Shown in pieces: positions 2,792 to 26,432 of a stretch of 43,394 nt of DNA (the stretch's first letter is position 1; each line of letters opens with the position of its first letter). Made by a program: the position numbers and the translations under genes. The DNA comes from a virus (lineage: Duplodnaviria > Heunggongvirae > Uroviricota > Caudoviricetes), in IMG/VR virus record IMGVR_UViG_2519103024_000002. The stretch is one strand, 5' to 3'. Below the pieces are notes generated by a model that was not told the origin of the DNA, did no database searches, and was given only the letters and a program-made list of their open reading frames with translations.

Positions 2792-5700
2792 TCAACTGAT
2801 ACTGATACCGGCTGTAGATTTCTTCATCACAACAACAAGAAGGTCGCTGATACTGGTCGTTGGCGTCCAGTTATTAGCACCATATGAAGAAACATTGAAA
2901 GTCAGGGTGACATGGCCGTGTCCGGCAGGCATATCAATGACTGATGAAAATACCCTGCTGACATCCGTCGCGGGTTGCTGAAAGATTTCCTGTCCGTTCT
3001 TCAGTACCTGCAGCTTACAGGTTGAATACCAGTATGACTGTTGGTTGTTGCTGTTGAAGTTTTCATGCTTACCCCCACGAAACAGAACGGGGGGGACTAC
3101 TATCTGACGGTCAAAAGCCTGGTCATCGTACACAGTGACCGTTATTGTACCGCTGGCATAACTGCCATTTCTCGGAAAGGCTTTTCCCACCGTTTTGACA
3201 ATATCACCTTCAATCTGGTTAGCTGACAGTTTTCCCAGAATCCGACAGTTCTGATTAATCGTGACGTTGTTGAGCGTCCCGGAGTTCGCGTTCACGTTAC
3301 CGCTGATATCCGCATTTTTCGCAGAAAGTCGACCATCAGGTGTCAGTGAAAACGTTGGGGGATTGCCACCGCTGGTAATGGTGGGAGCCGTCAGATATTT
3401 CAGGAACACTTCGTTCATGAATATCTGATCGCCCTGCCCAACAAACATCGGCTTTGTGTTGCCATTCGCAGGATTAATCATCGCAATCCTGTCCGCCGCC
3501 AGCAGCACCTGACTCTGCATACCGTCAGGAGTATTCTCAACACCGGCACCAATACCCGCGATATAAAGGCGTCCGTCCTGCATCTGCTGCAGCTTCACAG
3601 CCCACATGCTGTTCAGGTTATTATTTGTATCAACCTGAACCTTCTGTATCTGCTGGATCGCTGCACTCTGGTCTTCCAGTTTCTTATTGACGGTCTGCGT
3701 GATTTCATTGCTGACACCCGTAATGGACGTCCTGATTTCAGCCAGGTCAGGCGCAAGCTGACCGTTATCAATCTGCGTCCACAACTCCTGAGCCAGATGG
3801 GTTTTCCCTATCTCTCCTTTGAAAAAATTCAGATAGCCGGATGCATCATCACTCGGCTGGCCAACAGCCTCCACAAATGCCGATTTGCCAACGGTGTTCA
3901 CACTGCGGATGTAAAAATAATAATCATGGCCCGGTTTGATATTGATACTGGCGGCTATCCAGTACAGCGCCGTGCCAAGATAGCGTGCTGTGGTTTCAAC
4001 CTGCCTGATATCCGCAATCCGCTTTTCCGAGAACCAGAACTCAAACTGTACCGTCGGATCATAAACCGCAAGATGCGGCGTGGCGGTTATCTGAAAATAC
4101 CCCGGTGTCAGCTCAATCTGCGACGGCGCTGCCGGTGCGGCAATCCGGAACGATACCGATGCCGGATCGCCCTGCTGCCCCCACGCATTTACCGCCCGGA
4201 CTGTCAGCCTGTAGTTCCCCAGCGCCAGTTGCCTGAAGCGGTATGTGGTTTCCGTCGTCCGGGCCGTGCTGACCAGCCGCTCACTGCCGTCATCCGCTGC
4301 CACGGTCAGGCGAAGCATAAAGCTCACCCCCTTCACCACCTTCGGCGTGTCCCAGCGCGCCAGCACCTGATATTCCCCGCTGTCTGCGGTGACTTCGGCA
4401 GTCAGGTGCTGCACCGCTGGCGGCGTGACACCATTCACCGTGCCGCTCTGGTCGCCGTCAAAGTGCGCCCCGTTATCCACGATGGCCTCTTTTTCCGGTA
4501 CATGCTGCACGGCAGTGATGGCATACGTGCCGTCATCGTTCTCACGGATACTCACACAGCGGAACAGGCGCTGGCGCAACGTTGGCAACTTCAGCCCCCA
4601 CACGCTGTATTCTGCAACGCCGTCAGGAACACGGCTCACTTTTACCTTCACGCCGTCGGTGACGGACTGGACCTCCACGCTGACCGGATTCCCCTGTCCG
4701 TCAGCCAGGCTTATCAGCGTGGTGCCGGAGGATGGCAGCGTGATTTCACGGTCGAGCGTCAGTGTCCGCGTCTGGTTGTTCGCCGCCAGCACGCGCCCGC
4801 CGATGCTGATCCCCGCATAGTCATCATCACAGATTTCAATGACATCGCCCGGTACATGGCGAAGCCCTTCTGCACCCACGCTGAAGTCCACGGTCTGCGT
4901 TTCCAGCAGCTCCGTTTAANCAGCCACAGCCCGGNGCGGTGTCGCCTCGCCCCCGGCTCGGTACANNNNNNNNNNNNNNNNNNNNNNNNNNNNNNNNNNN
5001 NNNNNNNNNNNNNNNNNNNNNNNNNNNNNNNNNNNNNNNNNNNNNNNNNNNNNNNNNNNNNNNNNNNNNNNNNNNNNNNNNNNNNNNNNNNNNNNNNNNN
5101 NNNNNNNNNNNNNNNNNNNNNNNNNNNNNNNNNNNNNNNNNNNNNNNNNNNNNNNNNNNNNNNNNNNNNNNNNNNNNNNNNNNNNNNNNNNNNNNNNNNN
5201 NNNNNNNNNNNNNNNNNNNNNNNNNNNNNNNNNNNNNNNNNNNNNNNNNNNNNNNNNNNNNNNNNNNNNNNNNNNNNNNNNNNNNNNNNNNNNNNNNNNN
5301 NNNNNNNNNNNNNNNNNNNNNNNNNNNNNNNNNNNNNNNNNNNNNNNNNNNNNNNNNNNNNNNNNNNNNNNNNNNNNNNNNNNNNNNNNNNNNNNNNNNN
5401 NNNNNNNNNNNNNNNNNNNNNNNNNNNNNNNNNNNNNNNNNNNNNNNNNNNNNNNNNNNNNNNNNNNNNNNNNNNNNNNNNNNNNNNNNNNNNNNNNNNN
5501 NNNNNNNNNNNNNNNNNNNNNNNNNNNNNNNNNNNNNNNNNNNNNNNNNNNNNNNNNNNNNNNNNNNNNNNNNNNNNNNNNNNNNNNNNNNNNNNNNNNN
5601 NNNNNNNNNNNNNNNNNNNNNNNNNNNNNNNNNNNNNNNNNNNNNNNNNNNNNNNNNNNNNNNNNNNNNNNNNNNNNNNNNNNNNNNNNNNNNNNNNNNN

Positions 5701-7224
5701 NNNNNNNNNNNNNNNNNNNNNNNNNNNNNNNNNNNNNNNNNNNNNNNNNNNNNNNNNNNNNNNNNNNNNNNNNNNNNNNNNNNNNNNNNNNNNNNNNNNN
5801 NNNNNNNNNNNNNNNNNNNNNNNNNNNNNNNNNNNNNNNNNNNNNNNNNNNNNNAGCAGCTCCGTTTTAATCAGCCACAGCCCGGCGCGGTGTGCCTGCC
5901 CCCGGCTGGTACAGCCAAAGGCATCCATCTTCGTGACGTTACGACCGTAACGGGCAATGGCCTGCGTGTCCTCCACAAGCTCTGTCGCCGTCTCCCAGCC
6001 GTTATCCGGGTCAATCCAGTTCACCTCAACGGCATTATGGCGGTCTTTCAGGGCGCTGAAGCTGTAGCGGAACGGCGCGCCATCATCCGGCATCACCACA
6101 TTACTGCGGTTATAGGTCCACACCTTATCCGACGGTCGGTCCTGCACGAATGTCAGCGTCTGCCCGTTCCATACCGGCATACAGCGCATCGCCGAGCAAA
6201 AATCACTGAGCACATCCCACGCCTTGCGCTGTGTGGTCAGGTACGCATTACAGGTGATGCGCGGCTCCGTGCCGCCAAAGCCGTCCGGCACTGACTGGTC
6301 GCAATTCTGGCCGATGACATACAGCGCCCATTTATCCACATCTGCCGCACCAAGACGTTTCCCCATGCCGTAGCGCGGATGGGTCAGCATATCCCACAGA
6401 CACCAGGCCATGTTGTTGCTGTATGCTGGCTTAAACGTTCCGTCCCAGATACCGCTGTATTGCCGCGTCTGCGGGTTATAGTTCGACGGCACCTGCAGAA
6501 TGCGCCCGCGAAGATGATAATTACGGCTCACCTGCTGGCTGCCGAACTGCTCCGAGTCCACCTGTACGCCGACCAGTGCCGTGTTCGGGTAGCACTGTTT
6601 CACATCGATGATTTCGGTGTATGACGACCAGAGCGTTTTGTTCTGCAACTGGTCTGTGGTGCTGTCCGGCGTCATCCTGCGCATCCGGATATTAAACGGG
6701 CGCGGCGGCAGGTTATCCACCACCACCGAGGCCAGATACTGCGACGTGGTTTTGCCCTTAATGGTGATGTCTTTTTCCGTCACCCAGCCACCGTTACGTT
6801 GAATCTGAACCAGCAGGCGGACTTCCGATGGATTCCTGTCCCCCTTTGAGGTGGTTTCCACCAGTGCCTGCACGCCGAAAGTAAAACGCAGACGGTCAAT
6901 GTTTGCCGACGTGATGGTCCGGGTGATCGGCGTGTCATATTTCACTTCTGTACCGAGCACCGTCTCGGAGCCGGAGGATTCAAATCCCTCCGGCGGAGTC
7001 TGCTCCTGCTCACCGGCCCGGAACACCACCGTGACGCCGAATATATTGGTATTCCCCTCACTGTCCAGCACCGGCGTACTGTTCAGCAGCACGCTTTTTA
7101 ATCCATCCACCGGACCTTCAACCGGCCCTTCGCTGATGGCGTCTATCACGCTCAGCATCTGGGATGATTTCAGGTTGTCCTTCGCTTCGCGCGGGGTATG
7201 CCCCTTACTGCTGCCTTTACCCAT
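2792..7224 (-). CDS. J: host specificity / central tail fibre protein J, interrupted by an artefactual N-run (4966-5854) with duplicated flanks
   Basis: N-terminus [22 protein letters not shown]... and the join ...[42 protein letters not shown] read continuously when 4905-4965 is overlapped with 5855-5913; matches lambda gpJ. Confidence 0.9.
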
Positions 7225-8857: not shown

Positions 8858-9391
8858 NNNNNNNNNNNNNNNNNNNNNNNNNNNNNNNNNNNNNNNNNNN
8901 NNNNNNNNNNNNNNNNNNNNNNNNNNNNNNNNNNNNNNNNNNNNNNNNNNNNNNNNNNNNNNNNNNNNNNNNNNNNNNNNNNNNNNNNNNNNNNNNNNNN
9001 NNNNNNNNNNNNNNNNNNNNNNNNNNNNNNNNNNNNNNNNNNNNNNNNNNNNNNNNNNNNNNNNNNNNNNNNNNNNNNNNNNNNNNNNNNNNNNNNNNNN
9101 NNNNNNNNNNNNNNNNNNNNNNNNNNNNNNNNNNNNNNNNNNNNNNNNNNNNNNNNNNNNNNNNNNNNNNNNNNNNNNNNNNNNNNNNNNNNNNNNNNNN
9201 NNNNNNNNNNNNNNNNNNNNNNNNNNNNNNNNNNNNNNNNNNNNNNNNNNNNNNNNNNNNNNNNNNNNNNNNNNNNNNNNNNNNNNNNNNNNNNNNNNNN
9301 NNNNNNNNNNNNNNNNNNNNNNNNNNNNNNNNNNNNNNNNNNNNNNNNNNNNNNNNNNNNNNNNNNNNNNNNNNNNNNNNNNNNNNNNNNN

Positions 9392-17904: not shown

Positions 17905-18754
17905 NNNNNNNNNNNNNNNNNNNNNNNNNNNNNNNNNNNNNNNNNNNNNNNNNNNNNNNNNNNNNNNNNNNNNNNNNNNNNNNNNNNNNNNNNNNNNNNN
18001 NNNNNNNNNNNNNNNNNNNNNNNNNNNNNNNNNNNNNNNNNNNNNNNNNNNNNNNNNNNNNNNNNNNNNNNNNNNNNNNNNNNNNNNNNNNNNNNNNNNN
18101 NNNNNNNNNNNNNNNNNNNNNNNNNNNNNNNNNNNNNNNNNNNNNNNNNNNNNNNNNNNNNNNNNNNNNNNNNNNNNNNNNNNNNNNNNNNNNNNNNNNN
18201 NNNNNNNNNNNNNNNNNNNNNNNNNNNNNNNNNNNNNNNNNNNNNNNNNNNNNNNNNNNNNNNNNNNNNNNNNNNNNNNNNNNNNNNNNNNNNNNNNNNN
18301 NNNNNNNNNNNNNNNNNNNNNNNNNNNNNNNNNNNNNNNNNNNNNNNNNNNNNNNNNNNNNNNNNNNNNNNNNNNNNNNNNNNNNNNNNNNNNNNNNNNN
18401 NNNNNNNNNNNNNNNNNNNNNNNNNNNNNNNNNNNNNNNNNNNNNNNNNNNNNNNNNNNNNNNNNNNNNNNNNNNNNNNNNNNNNNNNNNNNNNNNNNNN
18501 NNNNNNNNNNNNNNNNNNNNNNNNNNNNNNNNNNNNNNNNNNNNNNNNNNNNNNNNNNNNNNNNNNNNNNNNNNNNNNNNNNNNNNNNNNNNNNNNNNNN
18601 NNNNNNNNNNNNNNNNNNNNNNNNNNNNNNNNNNNNNNNNNNNNNNNNNNNNNNNNNNNNNNNNNNNNNNNNNNNNNNNNNNNNNNNNNNNNNNNNNNNN
18701 NNNNNNNNNNNNNNNNNNNNNNNNNNNNNNNNNNNNNNNNNNNNNNNNNNNNNN

Positions 18755-20336: not shown

Positions 20337-20699
20337 AACCTCACTNNNNNNNNNNNNNNNNNNNNNNNNNNNNNNNNNNNNNNNNNNNNNNNNNNNNNNN
20401 NNNNNNNNNNNNNNNNNNNNNNNNNNNNNNNNNNNNNNNNNNNNNNNNNNNNNNNNNNNNNNNNNNNNNNNNNNNNNNNNNNNNNNNNNNNNNNNNNNNN
20501 NNNNNNNNNNNNNNNNNNNNNNNNNNNNNNNNNNNNNNNNNNNNNNNNNNNNNNNNNNNNNNNNNNNNNNNNNNNNNNNNNNNNNNNNNNNNNNNNNNNN
20601 NNNNNNNNNNNNNNNNNNNNNNNNNNNNNNNNNNNNNNNNNNNNNNNNNNNNNNNNNNNNNNNNNNNNNNNNNNNNNNNNNNNNNNNNNNNNNNNNNNN

Positions 20700-21175
20700 G
20701 ACACCAGAACCCCACACCGGNGGAAAAACGCTTCAGGGTCGAGCGTATTATTCGCGGTGTTTTCTTCCGACCATGGAGCCAGCTCCAGCAATGCAGGAAC
20801 ATCCCTTATCGTTGGCTCAACATGAGATTTCATAAAATCTTCAGCAGCTGAGTCCGTGGGCTGAAAAAGAAGGCTGTTGCGTGATTTATGCTCAATAAAA
20901 TAAGCCTCCACTCCCAGCAACATCTTTGTATAACCAACACGGGCAGATTTAATCAGGTTAACCGTGCGAATCAGATCGTTGCCCATACAGTTCATGATGC
21001 CAACCTGAAACGGCAGTGTTTCCCATCGCCCCGGGGTATAAGACGACTCTTTAGGAAGGTAATAATGTTTATTGGCCCACTGAACTGTCGTCAGTGGAAC
21101 AGGAATAATGAGAGATAAAAGCCCTGTAGCTATCGCACCGGCTGCATTAGCTGCCTTCTGCGCGTCTGAAATCAT
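20700..21175 (-). CDS. A: terminase large subunit A, N-terminal ~150 aa only; rest (and gene W) missing in the N-run; frame break near the contig edge
   Basis: ...[78 protein letters not shown]...[18 protein letters not shown] matches lambda gpA; after APW the match continues in another frame (..KRFS.GVGFWC); n at 20721. Confidence 0.85.
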
Positions 21176-21695
21176 CGATCCACCCGCCCACGTTTTCACC
21201 GGCCTTAGCTGCAACATTGGAGGCTTTCGCGATTTCAGTTTTCACCACATCAAGGTGTGATGGTGAAATGTCCGGATATTTACGCTGTAATGTCAACGGC
21301 ACACGCACAAGTATCCCCGAAATCTCCTGTGCCACACGTTGCAGAATGAAGGTAAACAGTTCAGTTTCCAGCACTACTCCGTCTTCACGGGCATTTTTCA
21401 GTTCCTGCGCATCTGCCTGCGCTTTTGTGAGCCGGTAGCGTTCATAGTCAATGGTGCCGGGTTGTAAATCTGACTCCGCTGCCGCACGCAAATCGGCCAG
21501 TTCTTTGCGGAGCTTTTCGTTTTCGATATCAGTTTCCCTCTGCGCATACCACTGAATTGCCATGGCAGTATCAAATACAGATTCAATGCCCTTACTACCT
21601 TTGGAGGCGCAAGGGAGTCCCTGAGACTGCCAGCGTTCAATCGTCCGCGGGTCCACGTTGAAAATTTCGGCAAGCCTCTTTTTATTAACCTTCAT
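21147..21695 (-). CDS. nu1: terminase small subunit Nu1
   Basis: 182 aa, [28 protein letters not shown]...[48 protein letters not shown] lambda Nu1; first gene downstream of cos. Confidence 0.9.
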
Positions 21696-21779
21696 GAAAA
21701 CAACCCATTATCAAATACAAGGCCCGACATGAAAACGCCAGAAAAAGGCATTTTCGGACACTTTCATGTCGGACCTTTA

Positions 21780-21900
21780 CGGATGCAATATTAAAAAAAA
21801 CAAAAAGTTATATTCGAGAAGTACCGACACGATTTTCCCTGAAAAATTTTCATAAATAGTGAAAAACCGCGAGGTCGCCGCCCCGTAACCTGTTGGATCG
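21780..21900 (-). other. cos site (cosN cohesive-end sequence at 21872-21883, cosB toward Nu1)
   Basis: Minus strand reads GGGCGGCGACCTCGCGGTTTTTCACTATTTATGAAAATTTTTCAGG, matching the lambda cos nick region incl. the 12-nt GGGCGGCGACCT end; about 90 bp upstream of Nu1. Confidence 0.85.
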
Positions 21901-22031
21901 ACGGAAAGGACCCGAAAACGAGAATAATTATCACTTACAGCAAGAATCGAATCTGATCTATTATGGTGCTTGCTATTATGTGCCGGCACAAGTGCGTCGT
22001 TTACCGTCATTTCACACAGAGGCATCATCAA

Positions 22032-22283
22032 ATGAAAATCAGAAATATTCTCGCTATCTCCCTTGCGACATCATCCTTCAGTTGCCTGGCATTTAAATCC
22101 TCGCCCAATGTGCTACCAGGACCAACGAATCAACTAACTGCGGTAGAAAGTAAAATTATCGGACATTTTTATGCCCCACACAGTACATTACCCGGAACAA
22201 CCATCACAGGGACATGTGACGCCTCCCCCGTCCCGGGATGCACCTGTCCGTTTTGTACTATGCTGCGTAGCCAAAACCGATAA
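22032..22283 (+). CDS. hypothetical secreted Cys-rich small protein (signal peptide, 4 Cys near C-terminus)
   Basis: MKIRNILAISLATSSFSCLA|FKSS... cleavable signal peptide, then ...TCDASPVPGCTCPFCTMLRSQNR; ORF track start 21963 is upstream of the likely ATG; no family recognised. Confidence 0.5.
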   Translation: MKIRNILAISLATSSFSCLAFKSSPNVLPGPTNQLTAVESKIIGHFYAPHSTLPGTTITGTCDASPVPGCTCPFCTMLRSQNR

Positions 22284-22344
22284 CATCCGCATTTACCTGG
22301 TATTCCATGATGAGTTCACGCAGCGACTGATAGAGGAAGGAAAG

Positions 22345-22524
22345 ATGGTTAGTAAAAGCAAGGCGCATTGCCGCCGCATGCTGCAGGCATTGCAACAGAC
22401 GAGAGCAGGTATTTTTGACCAGTTGGAAAACTGCCAGCATACTTTGCCCGAGTATATCGCCATCTCATCGGAAACCAGTGCAACTCTTATTCATCGGGTT
22501 CCACCAGAGAAAAAGAAGAAATGA
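22345..22524 (+). CDS. hypothetical small protein (59 aa)
   Basis: ATG at 22345 preceded by GAGGAAGGAAAG; MVSKSKAHCRRMLQALQQTRAGIFDQLENCQH...; followed by a strong hairpin. Confidence 0.4.
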   Translation: MVSKSKAHCRRMLQALQQTRAGIFDQLENCQHTLPEYIAISSETSATLIHRVPPEKKKK

Positions 22525-22530
22525 ACAGTG

Positions 22531-22555
22531 AGGCGTTGTGTGGCATACAACGCCT
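22531..22555. terminator. bidirectional terminator hairpin between convergent genes
   Basis: AGGCGTTGT-GTGGCAT-ACAACGCCT (9-bp perfect stem) with A-rich 5' flank and T-rich 3' flank; between the small ORF stop (22524) and lipoprotein stop (22647). Confidence 0.65.
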
Positions 22556-22646
22556 TCTTCCATCATTCCTCGTCAGCCATGACAAAAATATAACCGCTGG
22601 CTCTTTCATTTTTCTCCTGCTTCCAGCCCCTCTCTACCTGGAAGCA

Positions 22647-22973
22647 TCAAGGACGTGACGGCGTAAAGATAAATTGTCTCTTCACTCCCTGACAGGGGCG
22701 ATTCTTTTCAAATCGCCATTTCGCCATGGCCTTCACCACTTCATCACGAAACAAATTATGAGGCTCTGAGCGGAGAAAAACGATCCGTGTCACAGTCCCA
22801 TCAGCACCAATATCGAACTTAACCTCAACCAGCCCCTTGATATAATTTGCTGCAGCATATTCCGGATATCGTGGATACACCGTCACTAATTGCCGGGGCT
22901 CATCAGCTTTTTGCTGCGAGCATCCCACTGCCAGGACAGATAACAGAAAAAGTAGTAAAAGGCGTCTTTTCAT
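22647..22973 (-). CDS. hypothetical lipoprotein with TonB C-terminal-like domain
   Basis: From internal ATG: MKRRLLLLFLLSVLAVGCSQ (lipobox LAVGC) followed by ...YPRYPEYAAANYIKGLVEVKFDIGADGTVTRIVFLRSEPHNLFRDEVVKAMAKWRF..., reminiscent of the TonB C-terminal fold; domain call is from pattern memory only. Confidence 0.5.
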   Translation of the reverse strand: MKRRLLLLFLLSVLAVGCSQQKADEPRQLVTVYPRYPEYAAANYIKGLVEVKFDIGADGTVTRIVFLRSEPHNLFRDEVVKAMAKWRFEKNRPCQGVKRQFIFTPSRP

Positions 22974-23281
22974 TTTTATTCCTACGGGTCTTATTCTGAC
23001 AATATATCCTGTGTTCCAGACTGCCACATCACCACATCCTGTGCCATTATCTGACTCACATTACATACATCGCATCGGGATACAGTAGTAGCACTTTCTG
23101 TAATACAGCTTCCTGTTTCTTCCACCATCGCACCGGGATAAACCCGCGAATCATTAACGCGGTAAAAACCCGGTGTGCATCGTTTTAATTATTCCCGCAC
23201 ACTCACGCAGAAGGAATTCCCCGTCGGGCTACGGTCATGGTTAATGCGGGAATACGGCGACGATACAGCGCAGCTAAAAGG

Positions 23282-23286
23282 GTAAT
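23282..23286. repeat. IS2 target-site duplication (left copy, GTAAT)
   Basis: GTAAT immediately outside the IS2 left end; identical pentamer at 24981-24985. Confidence 0.8.
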
Positions 23287-23377
23287 TAGACTGGCCCCCT
23301 GAATCTCCAGACAACCAATATCACTTATTTAAGTGATAGTCTTAATACTAGTTTTTAGACTAGTCATTGGAGAGCAG

Positions 23378-23717
23378 ATGATTGATGTCTTAGGACCGGA
23401 GAAACGCAGACGGCGTACCACACAGGAAAAGATCGCAATTGTTCAGCAGAGCTTTGAACCAGGGATGACGGTCTCCCTCGTTGCCCGGCAACACGGTGTG
23501 GCAGCCAGCCAGTTATTTCTCTGGCGTAAGCAATACCAGGAAGGAAGTCTTACTGCTGTCGCCGCCGGAGAACAGGTTGTTCCTGCCTCTGAACTTGCTG
23601 CCGCCATGAAGCAGATTAAAGAACTCCAGCGCCTGCTCGGCAAGAAAACGATGGAAAATGAACTCCTCAAAGAAGCCGTTGAATATGGACGGGCAAAAAA
23701 GTGGATAGCGACGACGC
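23378..23717 (+). CDS. insC: IS2 transposase OrfA (InsC), 3' end in N-run
   Basis: [56 protein letters not shown]... matches IS2 InsC as remembered. Confidence 0.9.
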
Positions 23718-24619
23718 NNNNNNNNNNNNNNNNNNNNNNNNNNNNNNNNNNNNNNNNNNNNNNNNNNNNNNNNNNNNNNNNNNNNNNNNNNNNNNNNNNN
23801 NNNNNNNNNNNNNNNNNNNNNNNNNNNNNNNNNNNNNNNNNNNNNNNNNNNNNNNNNNNNNNNNNNNNNNNNNNNNNNNNNNNNNNNNNNNNNNNNNNNN
23901 NNNNNNNNNNNNNNNNNNNNNNNNNNNNNNNNNNNNNNNNNNNNNNNNNNNNNNNNNNNNNNNNNNNNNNNNNNNNNNNNNNNNNNNNNNNNNNNNNNNN
24001 NNNNNNNNNNNNNNNNNNNNNNNNNNNNNNNNNNNNNNNNNNNNNNNNNNNNNNNNNNNNNNNNNNNNNNNNNNNNNNNNNNNNNNNNNNNNNNNNNNNN
24101 NNNNNNNNNNNNNNNNNNNNNNNNNNNNNNNNNNNNNNNNNNNNNNNNNNNNNNNNNNNNNNNNNNNNNNNNNNNNNNNNNNNNNNNNNNNNNNNNNNNN
24201 NNNNNNNNNNNNNNNNNNNNNNNNNNNNNNNNNNNNNNNNNNNNNNNNNNNNNNNNNNNNNNNNNNNNNNNNNNNNNNNNNNNNNNNNNNNNNNNNNNNN
24301 NNNNNNNNNNNNNNNNNNNNNNNNNNNNNNNNNNNNNNNNNNNNNNNNNNNNNNNNNNNNNNNNNNNNNNNNNNNNNNNNNNNNNNNNNNNNNNNNNNNN
24401 NNNNNNNNNNNNNNNNNNNNNNNNNNNNNNNNNNNNNNNNNNNNNNNNNNNNNNNNNNNNNNNNNNNNNNNNNNNNNNNNNNNNNNNNNNNNNNNNNNNN
24501 NNNNNNNNNNNNNNNNNNNNNNNNNNNNNNNNNNNNNNNNNNNNNNNNNNNNNNNNNNNNNNNNNNNNNNNNNNNNNNNNNNNNNNNNNNNNNNNNNNNN
24601 NNNNNNNNNNNNNNNNNNN

Positions 24620-25476: not shown

Positions 25477-25938
25477 CTATCTGCACTGCTCATTAATATA
25501 CTTCTGGGTTCCTTCCAGTTGTTTTTGCATAGTGATCAGCCTCTCTCTGAGGGTGAAATAATCCCGTTCAGCGGTGTCTGCCAGTCGGGGGGAGGCTGCA
25601 TTATCCACGCCGGAGGCGGTGGTGGCTTCACGCACTGACTGACAGACTGCTTTGATGTGCAACCGACGACGACCAGCGGCAACATCATCACGCAGAGCAT
25701 CATTTTCAGCTTTCGCATCAGCTAACTCCTTCGTGTATTTTGCATCGAGCGCAGCAACATCACGCTGACGCATCTGTATGTCAGTAATTACCGCGTTCGC
25801 CAGCGTCAGTTCTCTGGCATTTTTGTCGCGCTGGGCTTTGTAGGTAATGGCGTTATCACGGTAATGATTAACAGCCCATGACAGGCAGACGATGATGCAG
25901 ATAACCAGAGCGGAGATAATCGCGGTTACTCTGTTCAT
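25477..25938 (-). CDS. Rz: spanin inner-membrane subunit Rz
   Basis: [49 protein letters not shown]... lambda Rz. Confidence 0.9.
25536..25718 (-). CDS. Rz1: spanin outer-membrane lipoprotein subunit Rz1 (embedded in +1 frame of Rz)
   Basis: 60 aa [60 protein letters not shown]; lipobox VVGC and proline-rich region; wholly inside Rz. Confidence 0.9.
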
Positions 25939-26432
25939 TGCTGACCCCACAAACAGATTTCACGCTCAATCTCACGACGAGTCATGAGACCTTTCCATTG
26001 CTTACCGCCAGCATATGTCCAGCGACGTAGCTGATCACATGCGCCTTTGATATCGCCCTGGTTTATTTTGCGAAGAAGCGTCGATGTTCTGAAATTGCCA
26101 GCACCCACGTTGTAAACGAATGAGTAAAGAGCGCCGCGCATTGTTTCCGGTATATCGACTTTGATGTACGGGTTAATTTGTCTGGCGACCGTGGCAAGGT
26201 CTTTATTCAGGAGGGCTTTGCATTCTGCTTTGGTATACGTTTTACCGAGCATGATGTCTTTTCCTGTATGCCCGTGACATACAGTCCATACACCAACAAT
26301 ATCTTTGTATGGTATGTAGCTGACACCTTCCAGACCATCGTTACCACTTGGGCCAGTGATTAACACTGATGCTATAGCAATTGCTCCGCCACCAATAGCA
26401 GCAGCAACGGCTTTTCGTAATGATGGAGGCAT
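25935..26432 (-). CDS. R: SAR endolysin R (phage-21-type lysozyme with N-terminal signal-anchor-release domain)
   Basis: 165 aa; N-terminal weakly hydrophobic Gly/Ala-rich segment [20 protein letters not shown] followed by a lysozyme-like body; start overlaps the S stop (TAATG). Confidence 0.85.

Follow-up and report, generated by a model that had tools for sequence, protein, structure and literature searches.

A predicted TonB-domain lipoprotein and an unannotated family of putative exported four-cysteine proteins encoded beside cos in a phage 21-type prophage

Introduction

What is encoded in the short interval between cos and the bor region of a phage 21-type prophage, and do its open reading frames (orfs) belong together? 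An earlier note, made from the sequence without database searches, described a cluster of three cargo genes here: ORF i, for a secreted cysteine-rich peptide; ORF ii, a small orf; and, on the opposite strand, ORF iii, for a lipoprotein resembling the TonB C-terminal domain (CTD), with a possible effect on TonB-dependent receptors. We have re-examined this interval by comparative and structure-based analysis. All coordinates refer to the window, the complete 43,394-nucleotide stretch that was analysed (IMGVR_UViG_2519103024_000002).

Results and Discussion

Genomic setting of the interval

The window is a lambdoid prophage of the phage 21 type from E. coli, written in reverse of the phage map, and the interval at 22032-22973 is its cos-proximal right end. 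The order across the window is Nu1 (21147-21695, minus strand); cos, with cosQ mapped at 21907-21913; the interval; IS2; and then Bor, Rz (25477-25950) and lysozyme, which agrees with the placement between cos and the IS2/bor region given previously. Runs of N at 4966-5854, 8858-9391, 17905-18754, 20346-20699 and 23718-24619 partly mask tail, head, terminase and IS2 genes, and orf lists across them are artefactual. An Rfam scan of 21600-23400 gave no credible match.

At 99.9% identity, the segment 21900-23286 matches the right end of phage 21 (OL657228.1), and likewise many E. coli chromosomes. Some match to it is present in 3078 of 5426 complete E. coli genomes, and at least 80% of this 1.4-kb stretch is present in 1218 of the 5426, among them Nissle 1917 and ATCC 11775, the type strain of the species. 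An IS2 element (IS3 family; ~23287 to ~24970, partly N-masked) lies between bor and the lipoprotein gene. Late transcripts have to traverse it before they reach the lipoprotein gene and the head genes. The IS2 transposase is antisense to late transcription, and strain CEA212U carries an IS2 insertion at the same place. Outside the window, the b region of phage 21 contains sitBCD, encoding an iron/manganese ABC transporter (L097 9968-12001; 21967-24502 in the phage 21 record), so this backbone carries further metal-uptake cargo.

The interval is best explained as two unrelated accessory genes, ORF i and ORF iii, together with non-genic filler. Each of these two genes occurs without the other and ORF ii shows no sign of selection, which does not accord with a three-gene cargo cluster; given the independent distribution of ORF i and ORF iii, the three orfs are not a functional unit or operon.

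ORF i defines an overlooked family of four-cysteine proteins

ORF i (22032-22283, plus strand) points away from cos and runs against the late transcripts; a GAGG is found 9 nt before its ATG. It encodes a protein of 83 aa, rather than the 84 aa first reported; the signal peptide and the four clustered cysteines described with it are both present, and the cysteines are invariant across genera. The Sec signal peptide is likely cleaved at CLA|FK, which would leave a mature protein beginning FKSSP, and the cysteines lie in a C-terminal motif, G-T-C-x3-PVPGC-x-CPFCTMLRS. ORF i is missing from both the RefSeq (PGAP) and the phage 21 annotations.

ORF i belongs to a family that spans Enterobacterales: full-length homologues (82-84 aa, 54-93% identity) are found in E. 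coli, Citrobacter, Klebsiella and Salmonella, and a profile search adds distant members from Enterobacter, Serratia and Pantoea, giving 31 clusters at 50% identity in which every relative that carries a name is 'hypothetical'. Conserved throughout the family are the signal-peptidase I site AxA|F, a helical segment around ESKILGxFY, and four invariant cysteines within GxCxxxPVxGCxCxFCTxLRS. The reading frame is intact in all 75 loci compared, and dN/dS is 0.10-0.17. Judged from this pattern of conservation, ORF i is a real gene that annotators have overlooked. We also considered the product as a lipoprotein modified at Cys18 (SFS|C18), and rejected this since position 18 is Ala, Ser or Gly in distant members, which retain AxA|F.

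The product would be a small Sec-exported protein, periplasmic or secreted, probably with two disulfides. A toxin-like or signalling role had been suggested, and it finds no backing in searches of Pfam, NCBIfam, PHROGs and PADLOC (zero matches at E<=1); the AF2 model (pLDDT 49) is uninformative, being too poor for a structure search. In three proteins of ~400-630 aa (P0080, P0082 and P0088), of low complexity and from eukaryote-like sources, the C-terminal motif, in the form P-x-PGC-x-CP-x-CT-x-LR, occurs as 4-5 tandem copies, and may point to a small, self-contained Cys-knot or metal-binding unit. Some ORF i variants (P0038 and P0041) contain a short +1-frame stretch (PEQPSQGHV-TPP) before returning to frame, with loss of the first of the four cysteines; the cause is a double frameshift with compensation or else an error in sequencing.

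ORF i homologues occur in a variety of contexts. In other lambdoid prophages (L094-96) the gene occupies the same cos-proximal slot and no TonB-C gene is present. A Salmonella island has a homologue beside bor, an omptin and effector genes, and on a 211-kb Klebsiella replicon (CP024459.1) the homologue lies beside a decayed cos site. In Citrobacter (L091 938-4817) it is divergent from an operon of fecI, fecR and a TonB-dependent transducer; a Fur-like box is present in the intergenic region between them. The best explanation of this distribution is that ORF i is an independent moron. It resembles lambda Bor/Iss and other lambdoid right-end morons in occupying the same kind of slot, as a gene for a small exported protein set against the late operon, and the Salmonella homologue is a neighbour of a bor homologue. 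ORF i differs from Bor and Iss in that there is no sequence similarity and its distant relatives are not lipoproteins.

Upstream of ORF i, no convincing match to a sigma-70 promoter was found. A Fur-box-like palindrome, GAAAACGAGAATAATTATC, is located at 21914-21938, directly inside cosQ. It matches the consensus GATAATGATAATCATTATC at 15 of 19 positions, where each shuffle of the whole window is expected to give 0.33 matches of this quality. At this position L094-96 read TGATAATAATTATCA, a perfect 7-1-7 Fur motif, and L076, a locus without ORF i, reads GATGATAATCATTATCA. The palindrome lies upstream of whichever gene runs away from cos, be it ORF i or a DUF3950 gene, and it may serve as an operator for Fur or be a cos-associated site that has so far escaped recognition.

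ORF ii and an overlapping antisense orf

ORF ii (22345-22524, plus strand) is indeed an open frame of 59 aa with a good Shine-Dalgarno sequence, as previously listed, but its status as a gene is doubtful. A homologue search returned near-identical matches and one weak one, with no divergent homologue, and ORF ii was not found beside ORF i homologues elsewhere. Variable sites among the 75 loci are almost all nonsynonymous, and in L074 and L075 an A inserted after codon 5 puts the ATG out of frame with the remainder. From this pattern ORF ii is probably not a conserved gene. Similar doubt attaches to a PGAP-annotated antisense orf of 60 aa (22258-22440, minus strand; WP_000881610.1, CPT_21_75 in phage 21), which has a premature stop in 22 of the 75 loci and a frameshift in two, and whose PHROG match simply mirrors the annotation of near-identical copies. 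Neither orf bears the marks of a conserved gene.

Either could instead encode a true small protein that is young and confined to its lineage; the strong GGAGGAAGGA-type ribosome binding site of ORF ii, its intact frame in 72 of 75 loci and the existence of PHROG families for both orfs might be cited in favour. We regard this as quite improbable, given that PHROG membership records only annotators' calls on near-identical DNA, that ORF ii lacks divergent homologues, varies mostly at nonsynonymous sites and can have its start frameshifted, and that the antisense orf is so often stopped early. The annotation should accordingly be corrected: the conserved cos-adjacent gene is the plus-strand ORF i, not the antisense orf.

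A predicted lipoprotein with an entire TonB C-terminal domain

ORF iii (22647-22973, minus strand), hereafter the TonB-C gene, encodes 108 aa comprising a lipobox signal peptide (LAVG|C18, with Ser at +2), a short tether of ~10-15 residues, and a whole TonB CTD. The proposed TonB-like mature part is borne out by homology, by conserved motifs and by the topology of the fold. The protein matches Pfam TonB_C (PF03544) with 49.2 bits (E 7e-13; curated cut-off 24.6) and TIGR01352 with 47.4 bits (1.8e-12; cut-off 27.1), and among solved structures the best matches are CTDs of TonB from E. coli: 1U07 (1.4e-14), 1XX3, 2GSK and 2GRX. Alignment with residues 151-230 of E. coli TonB is gapless over 80 aa with 32 identities (40%). 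The YP motif is kept (Y36-P37), the aromatic residues F180, F202, W213, Y215 and F230 of TonB correspond to F53, F75, W86, F88 and F103, and QFIFT in beta3 is aligned to NILFK.

An AlphaFold model, built from a shallow alignment and of low-to-moderate confidence (pLDDT 60), has secondary structure elements H36-43, E47-55, E61-70, H77-91 and E98-103, giving the alpha-beta-beta-alpha-beta topology of the TonB CTD. Each of the 12 best Foldseek matches of this model is a CTD of TonB or FusB.

The protein is not a full-length TonB. Against the equivalog models NF008081-84 it scores 58-69 bits, compared with cut-offs of 265-448, and matches only profile positions ~150-240; the N-terminal transmembrane anchor and Pro-rich spacer of TonB are absent, and a lipoprotein signal peptide stands in their place. 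By eye, the N-terminus MKRRLLLLFLLSVLAVG|C-S fits a PROSITE-type lipobox pattern. All full-length homologues have the lipobox cysteine, followed at +2 by Ser, Ala or Thr; this implies sorting to the outer membrane, where the lipoprotein would reside. On sequence criteria, ORF iii is a real gene for a lipobox protein with a TonB_C domain.

The TonB domain was already known, ORF iii being labelled 'TonB C-terminal domain protein' or 'TonB family protein' in GenBank and RefSeq. New here are the conserved unannotated family of ORF i, the doubtful status of ORF ii and the antisense orf, the independence of the genes as modules, and the late-operon orientation of the lipoprotein gene. Our literature searches, including those by accession and by the old label 'tonB-like membrane protein', found no study of a phage or prophage TonB lipoprotein, and PADLOC gave no match for it.

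The TonB-C gene is intact in all 75 loci, where its variable sites comprise nine synonymous and four nonsynonymous changes, and comparison with a 72%-identical lineage gives a dN/dS of 0.12; these values indicate that it is under purifying selection. The phages that carry this second lineage (L076-L082) have an HNH/terS packaging module and lack both ORF i and ORF ii; the gene has been retained in two phage backbones that differ in packaging module. A search of species-representative genome contigs with the protein found no relatives. In every context seen, the gene lies in late-transcript orientation between lysis and packaging genes, so the protein would probably be made mainly during lytic growth.

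Proposed action of the TonB-C lipoprotein

Lacking a membrane anchor and a proline-rich spacer, the lipoprotein should not be energisable by ExbB/ExbD, and a lipid-tethered, non-energisable TonB CTD is most simply a TonB-box competitor, which makes the mimicry suggested in the earlier note a reasonable idea. When FhuA and TonB are in complex, it is beta3 of the TonB CTD that pairs with the TonB box (PMC11658791), and the model of the phage protein has an equivalent strand (E98-103). By beta-augmentation, this edge strand would pair with TonB boxes of TonB-dependent transporters (TBDTs) or colicins in competition with host TonB, and would so make it harder for foreign phages, colicins, microcins and siderophores to enter by TonB-dependent routes. 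The proposed binding and inhibition are drawn from homology and from published dominant-negative TonB fragments: an overproduced periplasmic TonB domain is reported to inhibit TBDT iron import (Howard et al. 2001, J Bacteriol 183:5885, cited in PMC9841981). Those engineered fragments share with the phage protein a TonB periplasmic domain cut off from its energy source; they differ in being soluble, over-expressed laboratory constructs, whereas the phage gene is natural and its product has a predicted outer-membrane lipid anchor.

Resemblance to the CTD of E. coli TonB (1U07 and 1XX3; 2GRX with FhuA, 2GSK with BtuB) extends beyond gapless identity and shared topology to the YP motif and the five aromatic positions, which are functionally important; the phage-encoded protein is distinguished by its lipoprotein signal, by the loss of ~7 C-terminal residues and by the expected absence of coupling to ExbB/ExbD. 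Other small phage lipoproteins, which serve in superinfection exclusion, supply a precedent for such a position. The lipoprotein Llp of T5, located in the inner leaflet of the outer membrane, shuts FhuA from its periplasmic side against phages, ferrichrome and colicin M. Like Llp and Cor (phi80, HK022 and N15), the TonB-C lipoprotein would be a small phage lipoprotein at the outer-membrane inner leaflet acting on the periplasmic face of a TBDT. Unlike it, Llp and Cor act specifically on FhuA, which serves their own phages as receptor, whereas phage 21 uses LamB and a TonB CTD is expected to be generic for TonB boxes. There is no sequence relationship, in that the lipoprotein has no PHROG or PADLOC match to the Llp or Cor families.

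Several observations count against competition for TonB boxes, including the low confidence of the structure model and the lack of a PADLOC match. The positions of TonB Q160 and of R166, the latter a FhuA contact residue, are both occupied by Tyr, and the C-terminal ~7 residues of TonB are missing. A promoter scan called no sigma-70-like minus-strand promoter upstream of the gene. As the phage 21 receptor is LamB, there is no self-exclusion logic, and any exclusion would act on other TonB-dependent phages, colicins or microcins, not on phage 21 itself. A block of TonB would also come at a cost in iron, which sits poorly with the frequency of the gene in ExPEC and commensal B2 strains and with the presence of sitABCD in phage 21.

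The reading we prefer combines two unrelated accessory genes, one for an outer-membrane-tethered competitor for TonB boxes and the other, ORF i, an independent moron for a small exported protein; we hold it tentatively, at somewhat below an even chance. A bolder form is somewhat unlikely: the lipoprotein would be a natural generic TonB-box decoy under the outer membrane that uncouples every TBDT and gives broad-spectrum exclusion of TonB-dependent phages, colicins and microcins, and ORF i would represent a new Sec-exported four-Cys family, spread by lambdoid phages as a possibly Fur-controlled moron. A generic decoy, if confirmed, would represent a principle unlike that of the receptor-specific Llp and Cor. 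If TonB coupling is blocked, a very common prophage gene would alter sensitivity to TonB-dependent phages and to colicins and microcins, as well as iron uptake and the uptake of siderophore-antibiotic conjugates. This would bear on phage therapy, probiotic competition and Trojan-horse antibiotics, and the protein would be a natural version of an inhibitor that drug designers are seeking (PMC9841981).

Alternative roles for the TonB-C lipoprotein

The lipoprotein might instead support or rewire TonB processes, for example as a decoy confined to TonB boxes on incoming colicins or microcins, or as a modulator of TBDT signalling or iron uptake within an iron cargo set that includes sitABCD. The presence of sitBCD in the phage 21 b region, the Fur-box-like palindrome near cosQ and the frequency of the gene in E. 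coli from the gut and in ExPEC strains, Nissle 1917 among its carriers, are consistent with such a role. We nonetheless consider it unlikely. No Fur-like site matching at least 14 of 19 positions is present upstream of the TonB-C gene itself, and the gene is found in other backbones as well, the linkage to sit being seen for phage 21. SitABCD, moreover, acts at the inner membrane and does not need TonB.

A role in the envelope or in lysis apart from TonB boxes, such as late binding of peptidoglycan or of an outer-membrane protein, is suggested by a match to PHROG_1267 (5e-43), labelled 'Rz-like spanin', and by the position of the gene directly downstream of the lysis cassette in late-operon orientation. 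The spanin label is not credible, since the phage has its own i-spanin and o-spanin as a separate Rz/Rz1 pair. An o-spanin is encoded within or next to its i-spanin gene, is proline-rich and has no globular domain, whereas the TonB-C product has a full globular TonB CTD; the label was probably transferred from gene position and lipoprotein signal. We judge such a role very unlikely. Older annotations as 'partial' or 'truncated' tonB-like and the many truncated copies in databases would suit a captured bacterial tonB fragment without function, but this is highly improbable for a gene that has gained a lipoprotein signal peptide with an invariant cysteine, is intact in 75 of 75 loci with a dN/dS of 0.12, and is retained in two diverged lineages.

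Noncoding and minor features of the interval

Between the convergent orfs, at 22530-22556, is a GC-rich hairpin of 12 bp on the plus strand or 9 bp on the minus strand that had been put forward as a bidirectional terminator. The hairpin itself is real on both strands (MFE -18.6 and -18.5 kcal/mol, z -2.9 and -3.0), but neither strand has an adequate U-run and a terminator scan made no call.

The region upstream of the TonB-C gene (22974-23286, minus strand; RBS AGGA) travels with the gene. Over its ~300 nt, nucleotide identity between the two lineages is ~70% overall, with a conserved block (~23110-23272) at ~90%; taken to 23286, the block at ~90% is better conserved than the adjoining coding sequence at ~70%. 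The same block is present at 92-95% identity in many lambdoid phages that have no TonB-C gene (H34-H49). An RNA structure was considered for it and is unsupported, as the differences between haplotypes in the inverted repeat TTCCCGCA/TGCGGGAA are not compensatory. The block also holds a small plus-strand orf (MCIVFNYSRTLTQKEFPVGLRSWLMREYGDDTAQLKG in other loci); for the block as a whole, neither a coding function nor an RNA structure is supported. At ~23178-23186 the window is one T short relative to all 31 other haplotypes, which alters the first residues of the small, conserved orf at 23175-23285, and IS2 is inserted right after its stop codon.
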